A stretch of 58,397 nt of DNA from contig CBDUPA010000030.1 in assembly GCA_965368975.1 (NCBI GenBank), positions 1-58,397 on the forward strand, read 5' to 3'. The notes under the pieces were generated by a model. It worked only from the letters and a program-made list of their open reading frames with translations, did not search any database and was not told the origin of the DNA. Source of the DNA: an uncultured bacterium. GTDB lineage: Bacteria > Acidobacteriota > Thermoanaerobaculia > Multivoradales > JAHZIX01. Of the stretch, positions 5,046-21,938 are shown piece by piece. Made by a program: the position numbers and the translations under genes. Every line of letters begins with the position of its first letter. The stretch's first letter is position 1.

Positions 5046-6860
5046 TCAAGGGGCTGTACCCATTCCGGCCGCCTCTGAGACCGCGCCGCCAGCATGTCCC
5101 TCGACGTGCCCGAGCTGCGGAGTCCAGGCGCGCAGAGCGCCGAAACTCTGGCAACGGTTTTGCAAGCCGGGAATCGGCAAGGTGGAGCCTTCACCGGACC
5201 AGGAAGCTACGACCTCGTCGCGGCCGTCGGCATTGAGGTCTCGCAACATGACGTGATAGCCGCGGCACCCGTTGCCGAGTCCCTCGAGCTCAGGCGACTT
5301 TTCTTGCGTGAAGTTGCCAGCACCGTCGCCCAGGAACAGCCAGATATCTCCAGCACCATCGAGTGCCGCAAGATCCATGTGACCGTCACCATCGACATCT
5401 CCCGCATCCAGGCTCCAGAAGCTGCGCCGCCCCTCGTCGAAGGCCAGGGTCTTGCGGTGCCAGCCGTCTTCTTTGGACAGCAGCAACTCGACAGCCGATC
5501 GCCACACCTTGCTCTCCCAGCTCGCGAAGCCGACAGCCAGATCATCACGGCCATCCCCGTCGAAGTCGGCCAACTCGACAGACTGCAGGTAGGAGCGCGG
5601 CCGAAGACCTTCGGGCGCTTCCGTGACCCAGGAGGCATCCCCCTGCCCGAGGCGCAGGATGTCGCGCCGCCCCAGCAGGAGAGACGCTGTCACCAGGTCG
5701 GCATGACCATCGCCATTGATGTCACCGACAGCCAGCGAGTCTCCGAAGACATTGCCGTGCGTCACCCCCTTCGCCAGGCGCTCCCAGGTGCCGTCGCCCT
5801 CGTTCAGGTAGATGACCGCACCGTAGCTCTCGACGCGGCTCGTGGGGCCAGCGCCTCCGCTGATCCGAATCGTCGGTCGTGGGCCCTCACCGGAAGCCAG
5901 CAGATCGAGTCGTCCATCACCATTCCAGTCGGCGACTTCGATGGCGCGCGAGGAAAATCCGGAGTCCGAGCCGCCGCGGCCAGGCACGACCAAGTCAACG
6001 CCTTCGCTCCAGGGCACGAAACGGCCGGGTTGCTGCTGGATGACGACCAACAGGCCACGCAGATGGAAGCCGAACGCGAGATCCATGAGGCCATCGCCAT
6101 TGAAGTCCCCGGCAGCAGCATCGCCATAGTCATAGGGCGCCAGCGGAAAGCGAGCCTCTTGCCAAACTCGCCAATTCCCCTGGCCGTCACCGAGGAAAAT
6201 CACCGGCCGCGGACCGCTCTTGCGCGCCGGACCGTGAACGATGTCGAGGAAGCCGTCACCGTTGACGTCGGCAATGTCGAAGCCATTGCGCCAGCGACCT
6301 TCTTTGGGCAGACCGGCATCGAAGGCCTTCATCACCAGACGATCACCTTGTGCGACCTCAGGTTGATACAAGGCGTTGATACGTAGACGCTCTTGCTCTT
6401 CCTCCTGCGCCCGCTCTTCGGCAGTGATCGGCTCCGGCATCTCGATCGTCCGGTACACGCGCACGTAGAAGTTCTCGTCATCCTGGTCGTCGACCTTGAA
6501 AACGTACCAGTGCTGGTATCGAATGTGGTCGGCATCGACCCACGAGAAAGTGCCGTCGACCTTCTTCAGGGGTGCCAGGAAGTACTCACGTCCGTCCTCG
6601 GCCTTGAGCCACTTTCCGTCAGCCGGCTCCAGGGAACCCAGATCGTCCATGGGATCGTACGCGTCCAACTGATCTGCCACTCGCTCGTCGGCCAGCTGCT
6701 GTGCTTGCTCCAGAGTCATGCTCGGTCCCGGGGACGAACCCTGCGCCAGGACGGTCACGGGCGCGATGACGATGCTCAGGAACACCAGTACCGCGAACTG
6801 CGCGGCTCTCAGCGGCAACGGGAAGGACCACCGGTGGGCACCGGCGAGGTGGGTCTGCAT
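5046..6860 (-). CDS. Exported FG-GAP/VCBS repeat (integrin-like propeller) protein
   Basis: Repeated DxNGDGxxD(L/I) motifs (DVNGDGFLDI, DFNGDGLMDL, DWNGDGRLDL, DINGDGHADL, DFDGDGRDDL, DVDGDGHMDL, DLNADGRDEV); signal peptide; AAGGAGG RBS. Confidence 0.9.
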   Translation of the reverse strand: MQTHLAGAHRWSFPLPLRAAQFAVLVFLSIVIAPVTVLAQGSSPGPSMTLEQAQQLADERVADQLDAYDPMDDLGSLEPADGKWLKAEDGREYFLAPLKKVDGTFSWVDADHIRYQHWYVFKVDDQDDENFYVRVYRTIEMPEPITAEERAQEEEQERLRINALYQPEVAQGDRLVMKAFDAGLPKEGRWRNGFDIADVNGDGFLDIVHGPARKSGPRPVIFLGDGQGNWRVWQEARFPLAPYDYGDAAAGDFNGDGLMDLAFGFHLRGLLVVIQQQPGRFVPWSEGVDLVVPGRGGSDSGFSSRAIEVADWNGDGRLDLLASGEGPRPTIRISGGAGPTSRVESYGAVIYLNEGDGTWERLAKGVTHGNVFGDSLAVGDINGDGHADLVTASLLLGRRDILRLGQGDASWVTEAPEGLRPRSYLQSVELADFDGDGRDDLAVGFASWESKVWRSAVELLLSKEDGWHRKTLAFDEGRRSFWSLDAGDVDGDGHMDLAALDGAGDIWLFLGDGAGNFTQEKSPELEGLGNGCRGYHVMLRDLNADGRDEVVASWSGEGSTLPIPGLQNRCQSFGALRAWTPQLGHVEGHAGGAVSEAAGMGTAP

Positions 6861-6936: not shown

Positions 6937-7707
6937 CTAGATCTCGTCGACGAAGCGTGGTTTCAGGCGGCGGAACAGCCCCACGCCGAATCCTAACAAC
7001 AGCAAGGCGGAGAACGCCAGCATCCAGGTGCCCGGCACCCAGGCTGGACCGTCGGCGAGAAAGGCGACGCGATAGATCTCCACCAGGCTGGTCAAGGGGT
7101 TGAGCTCGATCCATACCTGGTACTCGACGGGAACGAAACTCATCGGATAGACGATCGGTGTCAGGTAAAACCACGTGTTGAGCATGAGTCCGAGTCCCTG
7201 GGCCATGTCGCGAAAGTAGACGTGCACACACGCCAGCAGCATCGCGACCCCCAAGGTCAGCGCAACCTGCAGCGGGATCGCCACCAGCAGCATGGGCAGG
7301 CCGGCCCCCGGCAGGTGACCGGTAGCTGCCAGCACGCCGACGAAGACCAGCGCCGCAATGCCCTGATGCAGCAGTGCCGTCAAGACGACGGCCAGGACCA
7401 ACAGTTCGGCCGGAAACCGCATCTTCTTGACCAGACTCGCATTGTCTGTGATCGCCACGGTGCCGCGGCTGATGCCTTCGTGCATGGCCGTCCACGGCAG
7501 CAGGCCGCAGAACAAGAAGACGGCGAAGGAGTCCGTCCGCTCTCCCAACAACGACATCTTCATCACCGTCGAGAAGACAAAGGTGAAGAGCACCAGCAGC
7601 CACAAGGGCTGGGCGAAAGACCACAGGAACCCGAACAGGGATCCTGCATAGCGGGCCTGGAAATCCCGGCGCACCATTTCACGAAGCAGGAATAGGTACT
7701 GACTCAT
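6937..7707 (-). CDS. ABC-2 polysaccharide exporter permease (Wzm/TagG-like)
   Basis: RRDFQARYAGSLFGFLWSFAQPL, LVKKMRFP, YFRD, FYLTPIVYP, LNPL and FVDEI motifs; multiple hydrophobic segments. Confidence 0.92.
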   Translation of the reverse strand: MSQYLFLLREMVRRDFQARYAGSLFGFLWSFAQPLWLLVLFTFVFSTVMKMSLLGERTDSFAVFLFCGLLPWTAMHEGISRGTVAITDNASLVKKMRFPAELLVLAVVLTALLHQGIAALVFVGVLAATGHLPGAGLPMLLVAIPLQVALTLGVAMLLACVHVYFRDMAQGLGLMLNTWFYLTPIVYPMSFVPVEYQVWIELNPLTSLVEIYRVAFLADGPAWVPGTWMLAFSALLLLGFGVGLFRRLKPRFVDEI

Positions 7708-8025: not shown

Positions 8026-11000
8026 ATGAGTCAGAGAGTTCTACGTAGCCCTTCGCATCTTCTTGCCTGTTCCACCTGCCTCGAGTCTGTCGAGTCTCGA
8101 GACCGTACGAGGGGTGCGACCCCAACACCAGATCTCCACAGCTTGGCCAGTGCCGGCAGCTTGGCCAGTGCCGGCAGCTTGGCCAGTGCTGGCTTGATCT
8201 GCTGTCTCACCCTGCTGCTCTGGAGCCCGGCCCGCCCCCTGCACGCAGGCACCTGTGCTGCCTTGGCTTGCCAGGGTTATTCCAGCTGTCACGCTCCCGC
8301 CTCGCCGCCCCCAGCGTCGCTCTGGGGCCTGTTGGAGCCGGTCGATACCGGCTCTCTACCAGCCGAACGAGACAACACGGATTTCCAGGAGTACTCGAGC
8401 TGGGAGACCAACCCGTACTGGCAATCCCTCGACGTCGAGGGCGGCTGGATGTTCACTGCCGCCAGCCAGCGTTTCCAGACTTGGGAGCTCTCGTCGATCA
8501 CGGGCCTGCCGATACGGCACGGCGACCTCGGTCTCTCCGCGATGAGCTTGACGTGGGGTGCCGACGCCCACGCTTTTCTGCCATTCCAGGACGTTGACGC
8601 TCCTCCCGGTGTCACAGACGTCGTTGCCATGTCCGGCAACAACGGTGTCGGCCTGGTCGTCTTCGATACCAGTGACAAGCGACGGCCATCGGTTCTGTAC
8701 CAGGACCACGGACCGGGAAACCCACCGCTACGGGAAGCCAAGGGCGTCTATGCCTCGACGATCAACGCTCGCCACTACGCCTTCGTCGCCGCCGGCGGCA
8801 TCGGCGGCGGTCTCCATGCCTACGACCTGTCGGCCGCGCAGCAACTGAACAACCGCTGCACAGAGGGGCAACCCGGCACGACGCGCTGCGCCGGCGTCTA
8901 CCTCCGGCAGCTGGGCAACCGCACCAAGACACAATTCGTCGACGGCGTCGCCGACCTGCTGGTGGTCAGCTCCGGCACCGACCCGTACGGCTTCGAGATC
9001 TACGACCTGCGCAACCCGGCCAATTGGGGTGCTCAACCACCGCAGCTACGCATGGAAGGGCTGACCTCGGAGACCGTCTTCGGCGTCGCCATGTGGCAAG
9101 AGCAGGATGCCGGCACCACGATGACCTACCTCGCCGTGCGTACGCTGACGCAGGGTCGCATTTACGACGTCTCGTGCGTCGAAGACGGCTACTGCCAGCT
9201 TGGCGCGCCGGTGAGCAGCTTCAACCTACCGTTCGCTATCCCGTCCACGGTGACCTTCTCGCGCAGCGGCAACACACCCTTCCTCTACTTCGCCCATGGC
9301 ACCGAACAGCCGTGCTCTCCGGTGGGCGGTCGCGAACACCTGTTCAACGTCGAGAACCCGGCCGCGCCGGCCGACATCTCGCCGACCTTCGAGGTCAACA
9401 TCCAGGGTGAGAACGTCAGCTACTGGGAGTGGTACAACAAGGGTGCCGGTAGCGTCCACGGCTTCAACCACATGCAGCCGCGGGTCGGCAAATTCGCGGG
9501 CGACTACTTCTATCGCGCCGCCAAGGGCATCCTTGATGTGCACCGCCGCACCGGCGGTTCAGCGCCGAGCCCAGACTTCAGCTGGAGCCCGAGCCAGATC
9601 TACCCCGGGACCAACGTCAGCTTCACCGACCTGAGCACCGGCGGAGCCAACAGCTGGGGCTGGACCTTCGACCCCGATGGCTCGCCCGGCTCGTCGACCA
9701 CCCGCCATCCGAGCGGCATCAGCTTCCCGACGCCGGGCACCAAGAGCGTGACACTCGAAGCGAGCAACGACTTCGGCCCCGACTCGCTGACCCAGAATCT
9801 GACGGTATTGTCACCCGACGTACAGGCCGGCAGCGTCAGCGTCTCACCCAACCCAGCCTTGTTGTGTCAGCCGGTGACCTTCACCGCGACCGGCTTCACC
9901 GGGCAGCCGACGCTGAGCTACGACTGGGACCTGCGCGATGGCAGCAACAGCCAGGTCGCCGGAGCTGTCGCCAACGGCAACCAGCTGACCTGGGACACGA
10001 CCGGAGCAGACACTGGCACCACCTATACCGCCACCGTCACCGTCAGCAACGGCGTCCCCAGCAATGACAATGCCACGAGCGCTCCGCTGGTCATCACACC
10101 ACTGCCGGCGCTCCCCGCGGCGGGCAGCTTCGTGCCCACCTACGACGGCGCCCCCGACCCCATCTTCGAGGGCGACCCGGTCCAGTTCCGTGTCACCGCT
10201 AGCGGCGCCACCAGCTGGCGGTGGGACTTCGGCGCTGGCTTCGGCGCCTGGAGCGACGACCCCGTCAACGGCCCGGCACCGCAACACACCTTCACCTCGC
10301 CCGGCCCGCACAGTGTCCGCGTCGAGGTCGACAACTGCGGGCCGGACAGCCCCATCTCGAGTGCGACGCTACAGCTCGACATCCAGGGCGAGCCGCCGAG
10401 GGTCGATAGCTTCCAGGTGACCGGCGGCGCCTTCTGCTCCGGTCTCGGCTGCTCCGCCGACGTCGGCATCGAGCTGACCTTTGGCCAGACCTTCTCGGGC
10501 GCCAACCCGGACTTTTACGAGTATGACTGGGACGGCAACGGCACCTTCGAAGAAAGCAGCCTCAACCCAGTCTCTACACATACCTACGAAGCGAATGGCA
10601 GCTACCAACCATGGGTACGAGTCCGCACGGACTTCGCCAGCGACTCGCTGCAGCTAGGCGCACCGATCAGCCTGGGCGGCGGTAGCGATATCGATCCGCC
10701 GGCAACACCGGGAAACCCGGCTGCCATGACCGTGCCAGGCAATGTCGAAGTCACCTGGGACACCGTCGCCGGTGCGACCGGCTACAACGTCTACCGAGCA
10801 CTCGGCCCGCTGGCCGCCGGCAACACCTACGGCGTGGTCGGCAACCTCGGCAACACCGGCAGCTACACGGACAACACGGCTGCCGACGGCGTCGAATACT
10901 GCTACCAGATCACCGCCGTCAACAACGGCGGCGAAAGCGCACCAACAGCCGCGACCTGCAGCACTGTCGAGCCCCTGGACAGCATCTTCGGCGACGACTT

Positions 11001-11040
11001 CGAAGCCAACAGCCTGGATGCCTGGGCCGTTTTCAACTGA
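8026..11040 (+). CDS. Exported beta-propeller + PKD + Fn3 surface protein with C-terminal IFGDDFE motif
   Basis: CAGGAG RBS; PKD motifs (VSFTDLSTGGANSWGWTF, WRWDFG, YEYDWDGNG); Fn3 (VTWDTVAGATGYNVYR...YCYQITAVN); tail IFGDDFEANSLDAW. Confidence 0.88.
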   Translation: MSQRVLRSPSHLLACSTCLESVESRDRTRGATPTPDLHSLASAGSLASAGSLASAGLICCLTLLLWSPARPLHAGTCAALACQGYSSCHAPASPPPASLWGLLEPVDTGSLPAERDNTDFQEYSSWETNPYWQSLDVEGGWMFTAASQRFQTWELSSITGLPIRHGDLGLSAMSLTWGADAHAFLPFQDVDAPPGVTDVVAMSGNNGVGLVVFDTSDKRRPSVLYQDHGPGNPPLREAKGVYASTINARHYAFVAAGGIGGGLHAYDLSAAQQLNNRCTEGQPGTTRCAGVYLRQLGNRTKTQFVDGVADLLVVSSGTDPYGFEIYDLRNPANWGAQPPQLRMEGLTSETVFGVAMWQEQDAGTTMTYLAVRTLTQGRIYDVSCVEDGYCQLGAPVSSFNLPFAIPSTVTFSRSGNTPFLYFAHGTEQPCSPVGGREHLFNVENPAAPADISPTFEVNIQGENVSYWEWYNKGAGSVHGFNHMQPRVGKFAGDYFYRAAKGILDVHRRTGGSAPSPDFSWSPSQIYPGTNVSFTDLSTGGANSWGWTFDPDGSPGSSTTRHPSGISFPTPGTKSVTLEASNDFGPDSLTQNLTVLSPDVQAGSVSVSPNPALLCQPVTFTATGFTGQPTLSYDWDLRDGSNSQVAGAVANGNQLTWDTTGADTGTTYTATVTVSNGVPSNDNATSAPLVITPLPALPAAGSFVPTYDGAPDPIFEGDPVQFRVTASGATSWRWDFGAGFGAWSDDPVNGPAPQHTFTSPGPHSVRVEVDNCGPDSPISSATLQLDIQGEPPRVDSFQVTGGAFCSGLGCSADVGIELTFGQTFSGANPDFYEYDWDGNGTFEESSLNPVSTHTYEANGSYQPWVRVRTDFASDSLQLGAPISLGGGSDIDPPATPGNPAAMTVPGNVEVTWDTVAGATGYNVYRALGPLAAGNTYGVVGNLGNTGSYTDNTAADGVEYCYQITAVNNGGESAPTAATCSTVEPLDSIFGDDFEANSLDAWAVFN
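8140..8193 (+). repeat. In-frame 18-bp tandem repeat x3 (SLASAG)
   Basis: agcttggccagtgccggc twice plus agcttggccagtgctggc. Confidence 0.95.
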
Positions 11041-11077
11041 GGCCAAAGATCGCATGGAGCGCCCCGATCGGCCCCGG

Positions 11078-11109
11078 TTGACAGCTAGGTTACAGGAGCA
11101 TATCCTCCT
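11078..11109 (+). promoter_or_regulatory. sigma70 promoter with overlapping palindromic operator upstream of the XRE gene
   Basis: TTGACA(11078)-17bp-TATCCT(11101); dyad AGGAG-catatc-CTCCT (11094-11109) straddles the -10 box. Confidence 0.7.
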
Positions 11110-11244
11110 ATGGTCTGCAACCATTGACACGCGGGTCGCCTTCAACCCGTCGACAGCGAGCAAGAAGAGGCCACCGAACGTCGCAAGACCGCCGGATCTA
11201 GGTCCGCGAGTCAGCTACAGCATCAAGGAACCGCGAGAGAAGCT

Positions 11245-11619
11245 ATGGCCAACCCCAGCAAGATGAGACACGTGCAACTGGTCGGACAAAAAATCCGGGA
11301 ACTGCGCAAGCAGCGTAAGCTCACCCAGACCGAAGTCGCGGCCCGGATCGGCATCCAGCAAAGCGACCTGTCGCGCATGGAGAAGGGTGAATACCGCGTC
11401 AGCCTGGACACCCTCTTCCGTATTCTCGCCGAGTTCAACATGAGCATGGCCGAGTTCTTCGACGAGATGAGTCGCGAGAGCTTCTCGCCACGCGACGTCA
11501 GCCTTGTGCGACAGTTCAACTCCCTGGAGCCCGACGACCAGCAGGAAGTTCAGAGCTTCATCGCCTTCAAGCGAGCACAGCAGAAGAGTCCGGCACAAGC
11601 AGCCCGAAAATCGTCATAG
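11245..11619 (+). CDS. XRE/Cro-CI family HTH transcriptional regulator
   Basis: VGQKIRELRKQRKLTQTEVAARIGIQQSDLSRMEKG. Confidence 0.93.
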   Translation: MANPSKMRHVQLVGQKIRELRKQRKLTQTEVAARIGIQQSDLSRMEKGEYRVSLDTLFRILAEFNMSMAEFFDEMSRESFSPRDVSLVRQFNSLEPDDQQEVQSFIAFKRAQQKSPAQAARKSS

Positions 11620-11760
11620 CGCAACGACCATCTCGGGACAAGCTACGCGCGGCGTGACATACTCACGCTCAACACTTGCCGCTATAGCTTCGGCACCGCC
11701 GCCGGACCCCGGCGTATCCAGACAAGGATGGGTTCGAGACACCGAGAGCGCCTGATATCT

Positions 11761-12771
11761 ATGAGTAACGTCATCTACCTGCACGACCGGAAGAAGTCCA
11801 CTCCGGAACCAGCACCGGCTACCCACGCGGCCACGGCGGTCGCTGCCGACACCTCGGCAACGAACTTCCGCCGCGACCTCGACCCCAGAGCCCGCTACGA
11901 GATGCTGCGTCAGCGAGGTGTCGACGAACTTCACGACGGCCGCCTGGACGTCGCCTACGAGTACTTCGACCAGGCCTACTCGGTTGCCTGCGACCTTGCC
12001 GACGACTGCCTGTGCGACCGTGCCTTCTGCAACCGCGCAGCGGTAGCCATCGAGATCGGCTCTCCCGGAGATAGCCTCGAACCCTTGCGGCAGATCTTGA
12101 CCCTGCATCGCGATGTCGAGAACAGCGGTCTGGCCGCCTACAACATCGCCCAGATCTACCAGCTGAAGAAAGACTTCAAGAAGGGCCTCTTCTACGCCCG
12201 CATCGCGCGCAACCTATTCGTCCAATTGGGCAGGAACGAGCGCCTTGCCGCTGGCTACAACCGTATCGGCAACCTTCTGCTTGCCGACAGCTACTTCGAC
12301 GAAGCCGTCGCTGAGTACGAAAAAGCGCTTGAGCTCTTCGAACCGGGGCCCAGCATCCAGCGGGCGATTCTGATCGAGAACCTGGGCTACTGCAGAGTGG
12401 TGCAGGGACGCTGCGACGAGGGCTTTCACCTGCTCTTCGAGAGTCTGCGCTCGTTGCGGCGCCTCGGCGGACATGGCTTCGCGGTCTACCCGCACCTGAG
12501 CTTGTGCTACGCCTACATCGAACGCGCGAGGCCACGCCACGCCCTGCGCCACGGTATGCGCGCTCTCGCCTTGGCCACCACGTTCCGAAACCAGGATTGC
12601 ACGAAGTACGCCTACTACTTGCTCGCTCAAGCTGCACAACTGGAAGGCGACCCCGTCGCTGCCCGCGACTACCTGGTCCAGCTGCAGAGTGAGTTCTACC
12701 CGCAATCACCCGAGATCGTCGACTTCCTGATGGTGGTCGATGTTCGTCAAGTGATCAACATCAAGGCTTGA
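11761..12771 (+). CDS. Cytoplasmic tetratricopeptide-repeat protein (RRNPP-receptor-like)
   Basis: TPR helices AAYNIAQIY, AAGYNRIGNLL...FDEAVAEYEKALEL, LIENLGYC; no signal peptide; ATG 11761 preferred over 11728. Confidence 0.85.
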   Translation: MSNVIYLHDRKKSTPEPAPATHAATAVAADTSATNFRRDLDPRARYEMLRQRGVDELHDGRLDVAYEYFDQAYSVACDLADDCLCDRAFCNRAAVAIEIGSPGDSLEPLRQILTLHRDVENSGLAAYNIAQIYQLKKDFKKGLFYARIARNLFVQLGRNERLAAGYNRIGNLLLADSYFDEAVAEYEKALELFEPGPSIQRAILIENLGYCRVVQGRCDEGFHLLFESLRSLRRLGGHGFAVYPHLSLCYAYIERARPRHALRHGMRALALATTFRNQDCTKYAYYLLAQAAQLEGDPVAARDYLVQLQSEFYPQSPEIVDFLMVVDVRQVINIKA

Positions 12772-12773
12772 CC

Positions 12774-14162
12774 ATGCGTATCCGGATCTCAGCCCTCCTT
12801 TGCTCGCTGCTGCTGATCACCACCGGCGCTCTGGCCGCGGATCGCGACGAACGCGCGTCCGTGCTGGGCAACGAGGGAGAACTCTACCGGGCTGAAGCTG
12901 GAACCTACGGCGACCTCTTCCCAACCGGGACCGAGACCGCTCCCGAGAGCCGGGTCCTGGCACTCGACGTCACCCACCCGCTGACGGGTACCGAGCGCTT
13001 CTTGATTCCCGGGACCGCAGACTCCAATGGCGACTTCGAGGGCCGTCCGTCACTCTTCTTCGACGACGGCTCGAGCACGCTCTTCTTGGTTTGGGAGAGT
13101 ACCCGCAATCAGATCCACCCCTACCTGCAAATCACCAGCTGGCAGCACGGGAACTGGAGTGATCCGCTCGTCATTTGGAGCAATGCCTTCGCCCTCAAGG
13201 GCTCGGCCAATCTCGCCGTCACTCGGGACGCCTACAACCTGATCGCAGCAGATCAGAGCGAGACGGTCATCTCGCGTACCGTTCTCCACCTGATCTGGTG
13301 GGAAGATGCCGTCGGTGGCACAGACGTCCTGTATGCCCCCATTGTGCTCCAAGATGGAAAGTACTCGCAGAGCCAACCGGACATCCTGAGACTCAACGAC
13401 TTTGTCGACTCCGAGAACGGCAGCATTGCTCCACTTTCCCTGGTCCACGCTCCAGCCATTCAGCCCGGCCGCGACCATCGCTCGGTTTTGGCAACGTTCA
13501 CCGACCAGCTGACGGGCCGTCTGTCCACCCTGGAGATCACCGTCCTTCCAGGTGAGCTGAACAGTCTGGCAGACAAGATCCGCGGAGAAATCATCGAGAT
13601 TGGCGAACGTGAGTTCGAGCCGGCCAATCCTTGGCCCTTTGCCGACAAGATTCGCGGCGAGATCATCGAAATCGGTGCCCGTTTGAACCGGCAGAACCTG
13701 ACCTTCCTGGCGGACAAGATCCGCGGAGAGATCATCGAGATCGGCTCCCGTTACAGCCGCGATCAGGTAAGCGAGCTGGCGGCACGCATCCGCGGAGAAA
13801 TCATCGAGATCGGTTCGAAGATCTTCGGCGCCGAACACATCCGGCTCTACGAAACTGGTGAGAATCGAAACACCGTCGAAACCACTGCCTGGTTCGATGG
13901 CCTAGAAACGCGTCACCAGCTTACATTCCACACCGCTTCGAGCCGCCTCGCGCCTGCTGGCGGGCAGACTCCTGCTCTCGTCTACTCCTCACGCAGTGGC
14001 GAACATGCCCTGCTGGCCTGGGACTATGGCGACGATTGGATCTTCTACCAAGAGAGCACAGACGAGGACAACTGGAGCGAGCCACGTGCTCTCGCGCTGG
14101 GCAACCACCTGTCCCGCGAGCGAGCTCTCGAAGTGCTCACACAACGCATCGAGAACCGCTAG
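12774..14162 (+). CDS. Exported protein of unknown function with four ADKIRGEIIEIG repeats
   Basis: Signal peptide MRIRISALLCSLLLITTGALA; ATG 2 bp after the TPR stop; beta-rich flanks around a repeat block. Confidence 0.85.
   Translation: MRIRISALLCSLLLITTGALAADRDERASVLGNEGELYRAEAGTYGDLFPTGTETAPESRVLALDVTHPLTGTERFLIPGTADSNGDFEGRPSLFFDDGSSTLFLVWESTRNQIHPYLQITSWQHGNWSDPLVIWSNAFALKGSANLAVTRDAYNLIAADQSETVISRTVLHLIWWEDAVGGTDVLYAPIVLQDGKYSQSQPDILRLNDFVDSENGSIAPLSLVHAPAIQPGRDHRSVLATFTDQLTGRLSTLEITVLPGELNSLADKIRGEIIEIGEREFEPANPWPFADKIRGEIIEIGARLNRQNLTFLADKIRGEIIEIGSRYSRDQVSELAARIRGEIIEIGSKIFGAEHIRLYETGENRNTVETTAWFDGLETRHQLTFHTASSRLAPAGGQTPALVYSSRSGEHALLAWDYGDDWIFYQESTDEDNWSEPRALALGNHLSRERALEVLTQRIENR
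13566..13814 (+). repeat. Four 39-bp coding repeats separated by unique 30-33 bp spacers
   Basis: Units start at 13566, 13638, 13707, 13776: LADKIRGEIIEIG, FADKIRGEIIEIG, LADKIRGEIIEIG, LAARIRGEIIEIG; differences are mostly synonymous. Confidence 0.95.
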
Positions 14163-14278
14163 ACGTCGATGGCGCGTCCTCGCGCCGCCAAGTTTGCAGC
14201 CTGGTAGGTGACAGCCCGCCAGGCTTTGTGCGTTCTGGCCGGTTCGCGCCTACGCTGCATAGCGGTATCATTGGACGC

Positions 14279-14986
14279 ATGGCGATGCGCATCTTCCTCC
14301 TTCACGGCATGGCACGCACAGCAGCGTCAATGGTGCTGCTCAGCTGGCGACTCCGGCGGGCGGGCTACGCAACCACCGCGTTCGGATACCACACCGTCGT
14401 CGAAGACCTGGAGGCCATGTCCGCGCGCTTGGTGACGACCATCCGACGCAAGCTGGAAGGCGACGGGACTCCGGACGGACCCTACGCCATCATCGGTCAC
14501 TCGCTGGGTTGCATCATCACACGTCAGGCCCTACCTGAGCTGCCACCCGGCTGCAGCCATTTCGTGATGCTGGCGCCCCCCAACCAGCCACCGATCCTGG
14601 CACGGAAGTTCAAGCGCAACCTTCTCTTCCGGGCCCTGACGCGCGATGCCGGACGCAAGCTAGCAGATCCAAGTTTCTATGACCAGTTGCCGGAACCGTC
14701 AGAAATCCCCACTTTGATCATCGCCGGGACCGCCGGACCCAGCGCTCGCTGGCTACCGTTCCAGGGCGAAATCAACGACGGCATCGTCAGCCTGCCCGAG
14801 ACTCGGCTCGATGGCCTACCGCGCATCCAGGTCGGCGGTATTCACAGCTTCCTGATGAACCGCCGGGACGTCCTCGACCACATCCTCGAGTTCTTGCGAC
14901 AAGATCGTCCTCCGTCCCCGAACCCGCCCACCACGGCCAGCCCACCGTCAAGCGTGGCTCCCGCCTCTGCCACTTCCCTCCACTAG
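14279..14986 (+). CDS. Alpha/beta hydrolase (lipase/esterase family)
   Basis: LLHGM oxyanion loop, GHSLG nucleophile elbow, NDGIV, IHSF; start trimmed from the 14036 ORF. Confidence 0.88.
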   Translation: MAMRIFLLHGMARTAASMVLLSWRLRRAGYATTAFGYHTVVEDLEAMSARLVTTIRRKLEGDGTPDGPYAIIGHSLGCIITRQALPELPPGCSHFVMLAPPNQPPILARKFKRNLLFRALTRDAGRKLADPSFYDQLPEPSEIPTLIIAGTAGPSARWLPFQGEINDGIVSLPETRLDGLPRIQVGGIHSFLMNRRDVLDHILEFLRQDRPPSPNPPTTASPPSSVAPASATSLH

Positions 14987-17816: not shown

Positions 17817-17856
17817 GTACCCGGGGCGCACCTCACAACTGCACCCCGGGTGCTTT
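17817..17856 (+). terminator. Terminator/stabilising hairpin after the Cys-rich peptide
   Basis: gtacccggggcgca-9nt-tgcaccccgggtgc followed by ttt; second hairpin gatag-tg-gcagc/gctgt-ctatc at 17769-17799. Confidence 0.55.
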
Positions 17857-17894
17857 CATGTGTGTCGTGTTCTGCAACTTTGAGAGACTCTCCT

Positions 17895-20800
17895 ATGCCC
17901 TGGAAGCAACGTGCTCTTGAACTCACATTCCTCATTCTCTTTTTTCTATCCTTCTCTCATATTCACAACACTACTACCTCAAGCCCGCTCTCGCTGCTTG
18001 TACTTTCGGTTCCGGAATCTCTCTCCCTAACTGAACTTCAACCCGGAGTGGAGATAATTGGCTGGCGCTTCAACAACACCGACACGTTCCTTGTCAGTCC
18101 CTTTGACTGGTATCTCTACCTTGATGAATGGGCTCCCCGGGGTGCACAAGTACTGGTTCTTCCAACTAAGGACCGTAGGACGCCTCTCCCTATCGACTTA
18201 CCCCATGCGGTCCGCTTATCTCTAGAACCGGTACCTCGCTTTGGCAACAGCCCCAAACTCAGCCCCTCAAGCATCCTTGACTTCCTAGCAAGCGAGAGCA
18301 CGGACTGTAATTCTATTAGTCCGATTCTCGCCGACCTCTCTAGATTTCCTCGCCGTAGTGACTCATTCGCTTTTCTCCTACTGCAAGCTGCCCTGAGAGC
18401 ATGGAAGCTAGAATGCACCGCAGCAGTAGAAAACCTCGTCAGGCTCGCAAGCTCTAACGCGATCACACCACATGCCAGACAATACTTGAAGCTGACGCTT
18501 GGTCGCTTGTATATCGCCCAGTATAAGACCGCCGAAGCCCGAGACATCTTCGAACAGGCTCTCAGCGATGCGAGCAACACAAGCCTAGCGACAGCTCGCC
18601 TGAACTACTATCTCGCCGATCTTGCCTGGTTAGCAGAGGATCTACCTGCCGCCGAGTCCTACGCTCATGTTGCATACAGCCAAGTATCGGCGATAGCACC
18701 AACCTCATCTTTCTTAGGTGACGTCGTCTTCTTGCAGGGCAATCTCGCGCTCGCCCAGCATAACCTCGTCACAGCGCAGGACCTATACCAAAGCGCCTTG
18801 CTACTCCATGATCACTCTCAAGCACCTTGCAAGACACGAGTTGACATCCTGACAAACCTCGCTATTAGCTATAGCAATCAGAGTGACAATTCCAATGCCA
18901 CAGCTACCTACGAAAGCGCACTCAGGATCGCACAGTCGATTGGAACCCGTGCGTCCACACAAGCACGTATTGCTCACAATTACGCGGTCACCTCAGCTAC
19001 TTCGGGCGATCTACATGCAGCACAGGAAAAGTATTCACTTGCAATCAGGTTAACTCCCACGTCATCAGTAGACGCTAAAATACATCTCCTCAGAACCCTG
19101 ATCGGCTCAATTTCCGTCGAGGTAGCTCTCGGCAATTTGCAGACTGCTCAGCAGCAACTCACACAAGCAAGAGAGATCGCGAACGAGGCCACCATACCAA
19201 CGTTACTCTTAGCGCACCTGTCCTCGGCAACTGCGCGATTTGCCGCAGAGACCGGCGAGTTCAACAAAGCCTTGGGGCCTTCAGGGGATGCGCTAGAAAC
19301 TTTTCTTGCATATGAAGAATGGACGGGTGTGATTCAGGCAATCAACATTGCTCTCCCTAGCACACTCGCCACCGGAGATCGGGACAGAGCGACAGACTTC
19401 GCCGAGCTCCTGCAAACGCTTCTTCGAGAGCAAGATCTACGCCCCTCTCTGAGAGGACTTGCTCTCCGAAACCTAGGAGACTACGAAGCCAGATGGGGAA
19501 ACTACCTAGACGCAGAGCGTTTCTACACCGAGGCACTCGACCAATTCGAGGGAACTCCAGGTAGCTCTCTCAACTCAGCAGCGGTACTAAATAATCTTGG
19601 TTTAATGCTCACTGAGCTTGGTCGGCCTCAAGAGTCCCTTGTACCGTTAATAAGAGCGCTTAGACTCACGAAACAAAGCTCCCCCGAGGGCCTATTAGCT
19701 ACTGGAATTCTCAATCATCTTGGCAATAGTCTACGCGAACTTGGACGACTTGCTGAAGCCGAAGCGATGTACCAGCAAGCAGCATTTATCCGCTATCGAA
19801 AGACCCCAAACAGTCCACTTCTCGCATCTCTTCTAAACAATATCGCTTTACTCCATGAGTTCCGTGGCGACTACGCAATGGCCCTTCGCTATCACAACCA
19901 AGCCCTCAACATTCGCAACACCCATGATAACCCCATTGATATCGCAACCAGCATGGCCAATCTTGGGATTACCTACTATTCACTTGGTGATTATCCTAAG
20001 GCAGAGCTACTCCTGACACAGGCAGTAGAGATATTCAAGAATGCCAACGCTCCCCCTCCCTTTATCGCCACAACCCAATCAGCATTGGGCCTTGTGCAGG
20101 AAAAACTTGGTTCAACCGAAGCGGCCATCGCAACATTACAAGAGAGTCTCAATCTCATTGAGTCAAGAGAGTATGGGTTGTTCAGCAGAGTGGAACAAAC
20201 ACTCCAACTCGGAGTCTTGTCTCTTATGAAAGGCCATCTCGGCCACGCGGACAAGTTCCTCTCAGATGCCCTGGCCTATTGTGAGCAAGAGAAGGCAGGA
20301 AGTGCAGTCCGAGTATCAATCTTAGCGAACCTTGCGGAGCTTCGATTTCTTCAGAATAGAAAGCCTGAGTTTCTGGCCCTGGCTCATCTATTACTTAGCG
20401 CGATTTCTCAGGACTCATTTAGCTCTTCTCCTGCCTTTAGTCAGAACTCCCCCCCTTGGGTCAGAGGCGAAGATCTCAGGCAACTAGCACACCGCGTCCT
20501 TGGTACCGGGGACTTCAAACTCGGCTTTAGGATCATTGAAACTCTTAAATCCAATCGCTTCCTTCATCGCCTCAGTCGTCGACTGGAGCGTGGTCCTTCT
20601 GACAGATTGACTCAAGGCCATAAACACTTGAGAAGCTTACAGGATCGCCTTCTCTTGATGGAATCGTCAGCCACCGAAGATCACGCTTTGATACTTGAGA
20701 GCGCTCAAGAAGCCTTACAGATGGAACTACTATCTTCCGACACGAATGTCAGCCACACAAGACTAGTGAGGGAAGAAACTACACTTGATTCAGAATCACT

Positions 20801-21938
20801 ATTGGAGAACTTACAAGCAGCACTGGAACCAGATGAACTCTTTCTTAGCTACAGCGTGTCGAATGAGTCCATTCTGGTACTTTCGATCTCGGCGCATGAA
20901 TATCAACATCGCGTGCTTTCAGTTAGTACCGGAGATCTCCAACAGCTCCTTGATACTTACCTTCAATCAATAATGAGAGCAAGGACACGCCAAGAACTAG
21001 ACTCTCTATACAGAAACCGTAGCCAGAGACTGGTCAACAGTCTATTCAAACCAATTATAGATCCACTGCAGCAGGCCAAGAAAATCATCATAGCTCCTGA
21101 TGATTTCTTATACAGAATTCCTTTCGCCGCTCTAGTCAACCCGCTGGAGCAACGCAGATCAGACGGCGCTTTAGTTCTCGATGATTGGTCCATCATAATC
21201 AGTCCTTCCGCTACTTTCTACACTGAGAAAACAATCTTACGATCGAGTCAGCACTCGCATCAGGATACTGTAGATCTCGTCTTGATTGGTGCCCCATCTC
21301 CACCGGAAGGCTCAACAGAGATCGCACACACCGGCGAGCCCCATCCTACTTACTCTAGGCTTCCACACGCTCGACGTGAGGTCTTAACAATTTTCGATCT
21401 CTACAGGAACGACAGTACAGTGGAACTTTTCGTGGGGCCCGAAGCATCCGAGTCGTATATGAAGGATCTACCTCATCACATCACAACCCTGCATGTTGCA
21501 AGCCATATGACGGCAGACTCCAACAGCCCCTACAAATCGGCTCTCGTCTTGAGCGAAAGTTTCGCTTCCGACTCGGACCTTCCAGAGAATGGCTACTTAC
21601 AAGCATGGGAAATATATGACCATTTCGAACCGCACGCGGAGCTAGTTGTCCTTTCTGGCTGCTCATCAAGCATAGGACCAGACTATGATGGTGAAGGGCC
21701 ACTCAGCTTAACCAAAGCCTTCCTATACACCGGCGCAAGCTCAGTCATAGCAAGTCTATGGAACGTCGAAGACCACTCTACGGCTGAGCTAATGATCGCC
21801 TTTCATCGCTCCCTTAGAAGCGGATATAGTTCAGGAGAGGCTCTGAGAATGGCGCAGCTCCAGATTCGAGATAGTTCACACACCAACTTGGCGCCTTACT
21901 ATTGGGCATCATTTCAGATTTATGGCGTTGGGAAATAA
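17895..21938 (+). CDS. TPR + CHAT (caspase-like, clan CD) protease with N-terminal hydrophobic segment
   Basis: Many TPRs (LNNLG, LNHLGN, LNNIA, MANLG); CHAT motifs IIAPDDFLYRIPFAAL, LHVASH, LVVLSGCSS, AFLYTGASSVIASLWNVED, PYYWASF; visibly lower GC. Confidence 0.92.
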   Translation: MPWKQRALELTFLILFFLSFSHIHNTTTSSPLSLLVLSVPESLSLTELQPGVEIIGWRFNNTDTFLVSPFDWYLYLDEWAPRGAQVLVLPTKDRRTPLPIDLPHAVRLSLEPVPRFGNSPKLSPSSILDFLASESTDCNSISPILADLSRFPRRSDSFAFLLLQAALRAWKLECTAAVENLVRLASSNAITPHARQYLKLTLGRLYIAQYKTAEARDIFEQALSDASNTSLATARLNYYLADLAWLAEDLPAAESYAHVAYSQVSAIAPTSSFLGDVVFLQGNLALAQHNLVTAQDLYQSALLLHDHSQAPCKTRVDILTNLAISYSNQSDNSNATATYESALRIAQSIGTRASTQARIAHNYAVTSATSGDLHAAQEKYSLAIRLTPTSSVDAKIHLLRTLIGSISVEVALGNLQTAQQQLTQAREIANEATIPTLLLAHLSSATARFAAETGEFNKALGPSGDALETFLAYEEWTGVIQAINIALPSTLATGDRDRATDFAELLQTLLREQDLRPSLRGLALRNLGDYEARWGNYLDAERFYTEALDQFEGTPGSSLNSAAVLNNLGLMLTELGRPQESLVPLIRALRLTKQSSPEGLLATGILNHLGNSLRELGRLAEAEAMYQQAAFIRYRKTPNSPLLASLLNNIALLHEFRGDYAMALRYHNQALNIRNTHDNPIDIATSMANLGITYYSLGDYPKAELLLTQAVEIFKNANAPPPFIATTQSALGLVQEKLGSTEAAIATLQESLNLIESREYGLFSRVEQTLQLGVLSLMKGHLGHADKFLSDALAYCEQEKAGSAVRVSILANLAELRFLQNRKPEFLALAHLLLSAISQDSFSSSPAFSQNSPPWVRGEDLRQLAHRVLGTGDFKLGFRIIETLKSNRFLHRLSRRLERGPSDRLTQGHKHLRSLQDRLLLMESSATEDHALILESAQEALQMELLSSDTNVSHTRLVREETTLDSESLLENLQAALEPDELFLSYSVSNESILVLSISAHEYQHRVLSVSTGDLQQLLDTYLQSIMRARTRQELDSLYRNRSQRLVNSLFKPIIDPLQQAKKIIIAPDDFLYRIPFAALVNPLEQRRSDGALVLDDWSIIISPSATFYTEKTILRSSQHSHQDTVDLVLIGAPSPPEGSTEIAHTGEPHPTYSRLPHARREVLTIFDLYRNDSTVELFVGPEASESYMKDLPHHITTLHVASHMTADSNSPYKSALVLSESFASDSDLPENGYLQAWEIYDHFEPHAELVVLSGCSSSIGPDYDGEGPLSLTKAFLYTGASSVIASLWNVEDHSTAELMIAFHRSLRSGYSSGEALRMAQLQIRDSSHTNLAPYYWASFQIYGVGK

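Follow-up and report, generated by a model that had tools for sequence, protein, structure and literature searches.

Can a diderm bacterium use a cytoplasmic receptor to read a peptide that is stored in several copies inside a protein destined for export? This question is raised by three genes on the forward strand of a 58,397-nt contig of an uncultured bacterium (CBDUPA010000030.1; the whole of this stretch is called the window hereafter). They code for an XRE-family helix-turn-helix (HTH) protein, a stand-alone tetratricopeptide repeat (TPR) protein and an exported protein with a repeated short peptide, here named REP, and together they form the unit under study, XRE-TPR-REP. A sequence-only reading of this DNA had proposed a split HTH/TPR receptor whose ligand is held in several copies within the exported protein. 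The three genes are present and adjacent where that reading had placed them, and the proposal as a whole is partly supported by our analysis. Its core claim, that of a TPR receptor for a multi-copy peptide, is strengthened by the new element of this work, a tree-aware covariation of the peptide with the TPR protein. Judging from these comparisons, the TPR protein most likely binds a 9-11-residue element of REP.

The four copies of IRGEIIEIG that had been noticed in REP are indeed there (Table 1). Their DNA copies in the window are 81-96% identical and differ at synonymous sites only. Tandem Repeats Finder detected nothing in REP, in which the repeats are short islands between unrelated linkers. 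When homologues are aligned, the peptide proves lineage-specific and yet the same in two to four of the four helices of one protein, with versions such as RGEIIEIG, RGNIIDIG, RAHIIESG, RSHIIEIG, RAQIIDLG, RHQIVDFG and GSHLIEIG. More than 100 versions occur among 176 proteins of the family, 147 of which contain two or more copies of an identical 8-mer (two in 84, three in 53 and four in 10); in-register identical 8-mers were found at least twice in 207 of 272 unique proteins. The repeat is thus homogeneous within a gene and variable between species, as would be expected of a ligand according to the earlier proposal. Within-protein identity extends from about -3 to +7, counted from the Arg of the motif, and breaks off sharply after an invariant Gly. 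Identity within and between proteins is 0.86 and 0.28, respectively, at -1, and 0.27 and 0.31 at +8, positions 0-7 being identical by construction because of how the copies were chosen. The linkers between copies are not homogenised, and the helix slots that bear a copy vary from protein to protein: slots 2 and 4 in 24 proteins, 1 and 4 in 15, 1, 2 and 4 in 12, 1 and 2 in 6, 2, 3 and 4 in 5, all four in 2, and other sets besides.

For identical 9-mers, the DNA copies show a median of 3 differences in 27 nt. Among 125 copy pairs, 10 have no difference per 27 nt, 41 have 1-2, 62 have 3-5 and 12 have at least 6, and in 41 of 71 genes every copy pair differs by at least 3 nt. In one gene, two copies identical over 14 residues differ at 9 of their first 24 nt, including a Ser codon that is TCT in one and AGC in the other. 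Because identical copies differ at synonymous sites, recent gene conversion alone is insufficient to account for them. On this codon evidence, it is the amino-acid sequence of the copies that is kept uniform, and such a constraint points to one reader for all of them.

If the TPR protein is that reader, its residues should change with the peptide. We assembled 107 complete TPR-REP pairs, 105 of them with a REP of at least 300 residues; 78 have a repeated 9-mer, which is in register in 71. The tree for these 71 pairs was built from TPR and propeller columns without the tested regions, and short REP forms were kept outside the statistics. TPR residues are numbered as in a 347-residue open reading frame. 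An unbiased scan covered 25,975 comparisons of peptide and TPR residues; seven of them reach a net score of 7, and the pair Asp6-Arg134 has the maximum, 11.4. Arg occupies TPR position 134 in 31 of 36 proteins when the peptide has Asp6, in 2 of 23 when it has Glu6 (Phe is then found in 15 and Trp in 3) and in none of 12 when position 6 is non-acidic. The association is visible in genomes (16/19 for Asp and 2/18 for Glu) and in metagenomes (15/17 and 0/5) alike. Thirteen independent contrasts on supported branches give 10.1 changes in the same direction, none in the opposite one and 2.9 unchanged (sign test, p ~0.002). Two other residues follow position 6: Arg98 accompanies Glu6 in 20 of 23 cases versus 10 of 36 for Asp6, residue 98 being one turn before N102, and residue 164 is Ser with Asp and Ala with Glu. 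The controls remain below this maximum. The best peptide x REP propeller score is 6.5 among 36,900, with none reaching 7; propeller x TPR comparisons culminate at 8.3 among 1.53 million, with 32 reaching 7, and at 9.0 in the reverse direction (1.53 million); and TPR x TPR comparisons attain 9.3 among 1.07 million, with none reaching 11. None of about 4 million control comparisons thus attains the Asp6-Arg134 score.

Peptide position 3 provides another set of associations. In plain mutual information, its combination with TPR residues 179 and 183 ranks first of 1,280; these are the two variable places of the motif H-N-x-I-G-N-x, in the helix to which N178 and N182 belong. Peptides with Glu or Asn at position 3 are paired with Arg179, which adjoins the invariant N178, in 7 of 7 cases. 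With Gln at position 3, residue 179 is Gln in 18 of 22, and with His it is Leu in 23 of 32. All five independent contrasts for Arg179 change position 3 in the same direction when Glu, Asn and Asp are taken as one group, which makes this trait the best of 2,147 TPR and propeller residue traits (the next scores 3.5, and the best propeller trait 3.0). Short REP forms have the reverse charge arrangement from long ones, with Asp179 accompanying Arg at position 3 in 3 of 3 cases and Glu found with the version RVHIPLG. Two other leads were abandoned. In the table, His or Gln at position 3 clearly accompanies Leu or Gln at 179, but the contrasts support this pairing weakly (2.0 same, 0.1 opposite and 4.9 unchanged, of 7). 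Plain mutual information was dropped as a means to discriminate the TPR protein from the propeller because it gave no overall separation, only the tree-aware contrasts separating them.

Altogether, the repeat covaries with TPR residues that adjoin the Asn ladder, as Asp6-Arg134 and Glu/Asn3-Arg179 illustrate. With this result, each of the three computational checks suggested in the sequence-only reading (synteny, repeat variation and covariation) has turned out favourably. The pattern is what one would expect of side chains that touch each other. From it we conclude with good, if incomplete, confidence that the TPR protein recognises the peptide element of REP.

The features of the TPR protein itself are in keeping with a cytoplasmic location and a peptide-binding fold. 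Compared with the upstream ATG at 11728, from which the 347-residue frame begins, a start at 11761 (MSNVIY...) agrees better with the N-termini of close relatives, and no signal-like segment is found at the N-terminus. The AlphaFold2 model (pLDDT 89.4, 14-15 helices) is predicted to be a peptide-binding superhelix. Among solved structures, the TPR superhelices of LGN/Pins, which bind peptides, come closest (Foldseek E 1e-7; PDB profile E 1e-14 for Pins); NprR (TM 0.64), Rap (TM 0.67) and RapI come lower in the Foldseek list, and in the profile search Rap3T and RapF have E-values of 1e-3 and 2e-3. In NCBIfam, there is a weak match to the type III secretion system (T3SS) chaperone SctY, far below cut-off (E 0.0077). 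The Asn residues that had been seen in successive repeats are conserved among 105 homologues: N178 in 99, N218 in 103, N182 in 87, N102 in 79 and N139 in 57. Among the 120 homologues of 260-345 residues listed in a near-length search, none has an HTH Pfam domain, and a search for longer proteins returned four unrelated long TPR proteins and no fused XRE-TPR form. The receptor-like TPR protein thus appears always separate from XRE.

The C-terminus of the TPR protein (window 12739-12771) is conserved to its very end, ...VDVRxxINLKA, with N344 present in 103 of 105 homologues. Such conservation suggests a recognised tail, and residues 339 and 343 of the tail show a moderate covariation with the REP peptide. 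We also considered that this tail might be a pseudo-ligand mimicking the peptide, and found the resemblance unconvincing.

REP is predicted to be a beta-propeller with the repeats in a helical insert. Its AlphaFold2 model, based on a 19-sequence alignment (pLDDT 84.5, pTM 0.82), has beta strands at residues 28-257 and 365-441, and the intervening insert consists of helices 260-280, 287-300, 306-324 and 329-351 (pLDDT ~90), each bearing one repeat. Structural matches are generic beta-propellers, namely Elp2 WD40 (Z 15.0), the PLL lectin (Z 14.6) and sialidases (Z ~12), and Foldseek with VIA-align pointed to no specific function. In the ESM Atlas, BNR-like leads reach 0.86-0.89, under the trust mark of 0.9, and neither Pfam nor NCBIfam has a family for REP. 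The N-terminus has a basic start, a hydrophobic run and small residues (A-L-A), as judged by eye, and 28 homologues look alike in this respect; export by Sec is therefore likely. In other orders of the class, short REP forms of 336-417 residues lack the four-helix insert and have at the same place, after a conserved L-x-P, one related element, R-[ILV]-[RH]-[IV]-P-[ILV]-G. Since these forms keep a single copy, the element is older than its multiplication, and the proline that it contains in them argues for a non-helical conformation when it is read. In one class of REP paralogues, Gly replaces the Arg of the motif, for instance in GGMIIETG and GNMVIEIG.

Table 1. Coordinates of the features of the XRE-TPR-REP unit in the window
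Feature	Positions	Strand	Basis or remark
Sigma-70-like promoter TTGACA-17-TATCCT	11078..11106	+	10/12 consensus positions; upstream of the XRE gene
Dyad AGGAG-N6-CTCCT, AGGAGCATATCCTCCT	11094..11109	.	Exact; over the -10 box
Candidate XRE operator, CTATGGTCTGCAACCATTG (CTATG-N9-CATAG with 1 mismatch)	11108..11126	.	Directly 3' of the -10 box
XRE-family HTH protein, 124 aa	11245..11619	+	Pfam HTH_3, E 2e-15
Stand-alone cytoplasmic TPR protein, 336 aa from ATG 11761	11761..12771	+	Pfam TPR_12, E 1e-13
REP, exported beta-propeller protein, 462 aa	12774..14162	+	No Pfam or NCBIfam model; AlphaFold2
Probable Sec signal peptide of REP, MRIRISALLCSLLLITTGALA, followed by ADRDE	12774..12836	+	Read by eye
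Four-helix insert between propeller blades, REP residues 260-351, bearing the four repeats	13551..13826	+	AlphaFold2
Peptide copy 1, IRGEIIEIG, residue 269	13578..13604	+	
Peptide copy 2, IRGEIIEIG, residue 293	13650..13676	+	
Peptide copy 3, IRGEIIEIG, residue 316	13719..13745	+	
Peptide copy 4, IRGEIIEIG, residue 339	13788..13814	+	

The three genes stay together throughout a class of Acidobacteria from soil. A HMMER search against 1.84 billion representatives gave 807 REP matches with E<=1e-3 (426 at E<=1e-30), these representatives being defined at 50% identity; REP thus constitutes an unannotated family. Homologues are present, often twice, in 54 of 61 genomes of the same order. They occur in 22 of 301 sampled genomes of the phylum, a tally that takes in one genome (G083) left out of all other counts, and all 22 belong to the same class, Thermoanaerobaculia of the Acidobacteriota according to the source names of the database matches. 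In 20 fetched genome loci, the TPR gene lies directly 5' of 28 of 28 REP genes on the same strand, and an XRE gene is found in 18 (the exceptions are L028 and L033), the order in one of the loci (L034) being TPR-REP-XRE. With all loci and the window taken together, some of the metagenome contigs overlapping one another, a TPR gene precedes 126 of 126 REP genes and XRE is also 5' in 97, and the order XRE-TPR-REP is kept in all eight loci from other orders, which have short REP forms; the synteny check that had been suggested was hence passed. Two nucleotides separate the TPR stop from the REP start in the window, and coordinates reveal 4-bp stop/start overlaps between genes of the unit in many relatives. 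The unit is found in single or double copy in a conserved housekeeping neighbourhood and not on mobile elements. It is probably vertically inherited in Thermoanaerobaculia.

Duplicated arrangements also exist. In L017, L018, L019, L024-L027, L032 and other loci, a single XRE gene is accompanied by two adjoining TPR-REP pairs in tandem or divergent orientation. The genome of the window has a second XRE-TPR-REP unit on another contig (G000 contig C3, locus L016, 5674-8509), with a 67% identical XRE, two copies of the peptide GSHLIEIG and Gln as TPR residue 179. A search with the XRE alignment gave 515 XRE relatives; the alignments of REP and of the TPR protein contain no conserved stretch of 7-10 columns. 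Of 77 metagenome loci found through XRE, 64 have a TPR match; nine of the other 13 have less than 250 nt of contig left and four have 680-3600 nt. The latter (L061, L068, L088 at 939-1304, and L093) encode close XRE homologues with no TPR or REP match at E<=1e-5 in this downstream sequence, so that XRE may also occur outside the trio.

The XRE protein has the traits of a repressor, namely an HTH_3 domain and a conserved palindrome 5' of its genes, to which it would bind. Its C-terminal extension of about 50 residues is conserved, and the protein is 53-71% identical across the order, with 39 invariant columns. The best NCBIfam match is an RstR-type phage repressor, below cut-off, and of the proteins of the unit searched, XRE alone has a match to AimR, a weak one. 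The promoter-like site reported upstream of the XRE gene is real, but its match to the consensus is at chance level, as a scan of 10900-14500 found one such site versus 0.9 expected; its position rather than its match argues for a promoter. Comparable TTGACA/-10 pairs were seen by eye 5' of XRE in relatives. The dyad AGGAG-N6-CTCCT over the -10 box had been put forward as the operator. It is present and exact, and it is the single exact match in the window versus 0.04 expected (4 of 100 shuffles have a match). As an operator, however, it is not conserved, since it is found at none of the XRE promoters of relatives, with a match anywhere in only 4 of 160 loci. Reading the upstream regions of 17 XRE genes revealed a different palindrome, CTATG-N9-CATAG, which is exact in 14 fetched loci, some of them overlapping, and lies 5' of the XRE start in the loci read. 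This palindrome, in place of the AGGAG dyad, is likely the XRE operator. Exact copies are absent elsewhere in the genome of the window, so we propose no wider regulon, and no clear copy was found upstream of the second unit of the same genome. A terminator scan of 10900-14500 found none, and no sequencing run was on record for this locus.

How an exported ligand might meet a cytoplasmic receptor allows several answers, and the one that we tentatively prefer, with a chance that we would put somewhat below even, is that XRE-TPR-REP is a self-contained ligand-receptor-repressor switch that works by release and re-import. REP would be exported by Sec and its helical insert cut in the periplasm. 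The peptides would return through an oligopeptide permease and fill the Asn-lined groove of the TPR protein. On the covariation evidence, the latter probably reads the element D-x-x-R-x-x-I-I-x-x-G (DKIRGEIIEIG in the window), of which REP proteins carry one copy in the short forms and up to four as in the window. The loaded TPR protein would then alter its action on the XRE repressor, presumably seated on the CTATG-N9-CATAG operator at the operon's own promoter, with the same logic as Rap-Phr acting on the separate repressor Rco of pLS20. Five Opp/Dpp-type binding proteins are encoded in the genome, which is a necessary condition only for import. We prefer this route because the peptide unit has sharp ends and its copy number and slot use vary freely, because the same evolutionary pattern is reported for Phr peptides in the accessible part of PMC5199041, because pLS20 offers a precedent for a stand-alone TPR protein with a separate XRE repressor (PMC7430634, accessible part), and because periplasmic release in a diderm cell would put the peptide within direct reach of an Opp-type importer. 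As the peptide would be made in the diderm periplasm, the circuit could report propeller turnover inside one cell and not cell density. If so, the conserved propeller would have a function in this single-cell readout, that of the sensing part. A bolder version, unlikely in our estimation, is that the periplasmic propeller is a 'sentinel' with one to four copies of a peptide of its own, which relays information from the periplasm to the cytoplasmic XRE repressor without a membrane-spanning sensor, by means of freed and re-imported peptides. Cutting of the insert would then be set by the ligand of the propeller or by envelope proteolysis, and the peptides would be read by a co-evolving Rap/LGN-like TPR receptor that controls XRE. 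Were this true, it would be the first RRNPP-like peptide circuit outside Gram-positives, with a folded protein as the pro-signal.

A number of observations weigh against release and re-import, or against the receptor-ligand relation on which it builds. The repeats are modelled in confident helices of the insert of a folded propeller, a situation that the sequence-only reading had itself named as a possible refutation, and release of the peptide would for this reason need proteolysis of a folded domain. REP homologues are 336-500 residues long and folded as propellers, unlike propeptides of 10-100 residues. No protease, exporter or permease gene was found as part of the unit in the neighbourhoods examined, and the ligand is exported whereas the receptor is cytoplasmic, with a meeting route that is only proposed. 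The covariation signal is confined to a few residue pairs, and in overall mutual information, peptide x TPR and peptide x propeller have similar distributions (99th percentiles 0.757 and 0.718). The E/N/D grouping at position 3 was picked after the table had been seen. The placement of the covarying residues along the groove derives from helix assignments and from their spacing relative to the ladder Asn, and residues 80 and 164 are on B helices. Lastly, the best structural match of the TPR protein is not an RRNPP receptor (Rap, NprR, PlcR, Rgg, PrgX, AimR), and its matches do not establish that it belongs to this family.

The main rival to release and re-import dispenses with the return journey. 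The TPR protein would bind the element in unfolded pre-REP in the cytoplasm, as a chaperone or an export sensor, and unexported REP would titrate it off or onto XRE so that transcription of the operon tracks the export flux. We regard this capture before export as unlikely, although the same covariation and co-conservation apply to it and it has its own attractions. Both proteins are made in one compartment from overlapping genes, neither a protease nor an importer is required, the location of the element in a folded, functional propeller is accounted for, several copies would bring avidity for an oligomeric TPR protein, and the weak SctY match mentioned above, for all its distance from the cut-off, goes in the same direction. 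Nevertheless, Sec substrates are not known to depend on a TPR chaperone of their own. With its location at residues 266-347 of 462, the element would become accessible for a short time only, and the variable slots and the sharp end after Gly better fit a discrete peptide than a chaperone-binding stretch. The evolutionary pattern, moreover, is that of the Phr duplications as they appear in the accessible part of PMC5199041.

The two remaining views are less likely than either of these. Strict RRNPP cell-to-cell quorum sensing, in which the peptide crosses the outer membrane, builds up with density and is imported by neighbours, shares the evidence for release and re-import, and the paralogous modules of one genome differ in their peptides (RGEIIEIG and GSHLIEIG here), as for insulated channels. 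It is nonetheless improbable, as a hydrophobic 9-11-mer would have to cross the outer membrane twice, no exporter gene belongs to the unit, and the single or double copy in a housekeeping neighbourhood contrasts with carriage on mobile elements. We give equally little credence to the absence of any receptor-ligand relation, with repeats that would be structural helices homogenised by gene conversion over short tracts, XRE and TPR proteins whose role is confined to transcriptional regulation, and a covariation that is a by-product of shared ancestry. The confidently modelled four-helix insert and the overall likeness of the mutual information distributions would suit this view, and conversion is plausible in part given that 51 of the 125 copy pairs differ by at most 2 nt. 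However, the other 74 differ by at least 3 synonymous nucleotides with the amino acids unchanged, identity stops at the linkers, and the four slots are structurally non-equivalent, yet any subset of them can bear a copy. Shared ancestry should affect the controls as well, and Asp6-Arg134 tops them all, the covariation of the peptide with its own propeller not being comparable; a charge swap at TPR residue 179 is an additional argument.

As for the surroundings of the unit, a FG-GAP repeat protein is its conserved upstream neighbour in 13 loci and is encoded at 5046-6860 (-) in the window. Downstream, 15-16 loci of relatives have genes for a GHMP kinase, an M23 peptidase and an ECF sigma/anti-sigma pair; the window differs in having a PKD-domain protein and other genes in their place. 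This 1004-aa protein with PKD domains (8026-11040, +) lies directly upstream of the unit, but among 20 genome loci only 7 have a homologue at a distance of up to about 7 kb, one of these matches being weak, so that the proposed link of the unit with a surface-protein locus is only partial. The M23 peptidase, which has a Csd3-like domain, is encoded two genes 3' of REP, after the GHMP kinase, in 16 loci of relatives (for example L017, 3717-5138) and not in the window. M23 enzymes cut after Gly. The conjunction of this peptidase with the invariant Gly that ends the peptide unit may be a coincidence of a conserved neighbourhood. The window also encodes an ABC-2 type transporter permease (6937-7707, -) and a protein of 1362 aa that combines many TPRs with a CHAT (caspase-like) domain at its C-terminus (17850-21938, +).

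To our knowledge, RRNPP peptide signalling through cytoplasmic TPR receptors has been described only for Bacillota and their mobile elements. Full-text searches, supplements excluded, returned no paper on RRNPP together with Acidobacteria, none of the matches for Thermoanaerobaculia combined with quorum sensing and peptide was relevant, and among the matches listed for RRNPP with Gram-negative, tetratricopeptide or XRE there were only Bacillota or unrelated topics. By sequence and fold, the TPR protein is best matched by LGN/Pins, eukaryotic polarity proteins that likewise have conserved Asn residues on successive A helices. Their binding mode for extended peptide ligands probably resembles that of the TPR protein of the unit, the likeness being otherwise one of fold only. 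TPR class II chaperones of T3SS couple the export of a protein to a transcription factor, as in IpgC-MxiE and SicA-InvF and as would be the case in capture before export, and thus have in common with the unit a cytoplasmic TPR protein, an exported partner and a transcription factor. Unlike them, the unit has a REP with a probable Sec-type signal, no secretion apparatus nearby and an XRE protein instead of an AraC-type factor.

The RRNPP signature comprises five criteria, which include, in the accessible part of PMC10075063, a propeptide of 21-50 aa in validated cases (10-100 aa in searches) and a receptor of 250-500 aa. At 336 aa, or 347 from the upstream ATG, the TPR protein falls within the receptor range; it is a TPR protein whose recognition of a peptide is suggested by covariation, and its gene adjoins that of the peptide source, with the 2-nt gap in the window and the invariable adjacency described above. 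REP, at 462 aa and as a folded propeller with homologues of similar size, departs from the small propeptide, and XRE is encoded by a separate gene in place of the fused N-terminal HTH of PlcR, NprR, Rgg and AimR. A stand-alone TPR protein with a separate XRE-type repressor does have a Firmicute precedent, in Rco/Rap/Phr* of the Bacillus subtilis plasmid pLS20. In the accessible part of PMC7430634, Rap binds the repressor Rco and the peptide releases it. Rco/Rap/Phr* and the unit share a separate XRE-type repressor, a stand-alone TPR protein, a Sec-exported peptide source (probably so for REP), a receptor gene directly before the peptide-source gene, and the co-evolution of receptor and peptide. 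They differ in that the three genes of the unit form one operon on a diderm chromosome, that the peptide lies in internal copies within a 462-aa beta-propeller, in place of a propeptide of some 44 aa that bears it at the C-terminus, and that the TPR protein has only weak homology to Rap (profile E 1e-3), LGN being better by fold. Since LGN/Pins match the TPR protein better, we file the unit as one that would work like the Rap-Phr/Rco switch and not as a member of that family.

Within Phr genes of Bacillus, the autoinducer has been duplicated into copies that are identical or diverging, and the receptor coevolves with it (Even-Tov et al. 2016, PMC5199041, accessible part). REP resembles Phr in its several copies per precursor, its lineage-specific versions and its apparently coevolving TPR receptor. 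The Phr copies, however, are located in a short unstructured propeptide, whereas those of REP are each on a helix of a folded insert, spaced by 23-24 residues, and the recognised unit would be of 9-11 residues in REP as against 5-6 in Phr. Peptide versions, identical copies, residue-level coevolution and a charge swap together give the unit the evolutionary signature of such a receptor-ligand pair, in a diderm phylum, and the covarying pairs (peptide 3 with TPR 179, and peptide 6 with TPR 134 and 98) define exact targets for mutant swaps. Unlike in the known systems, the putative ligand is embedded in a conserved, folded periplasmic protein.

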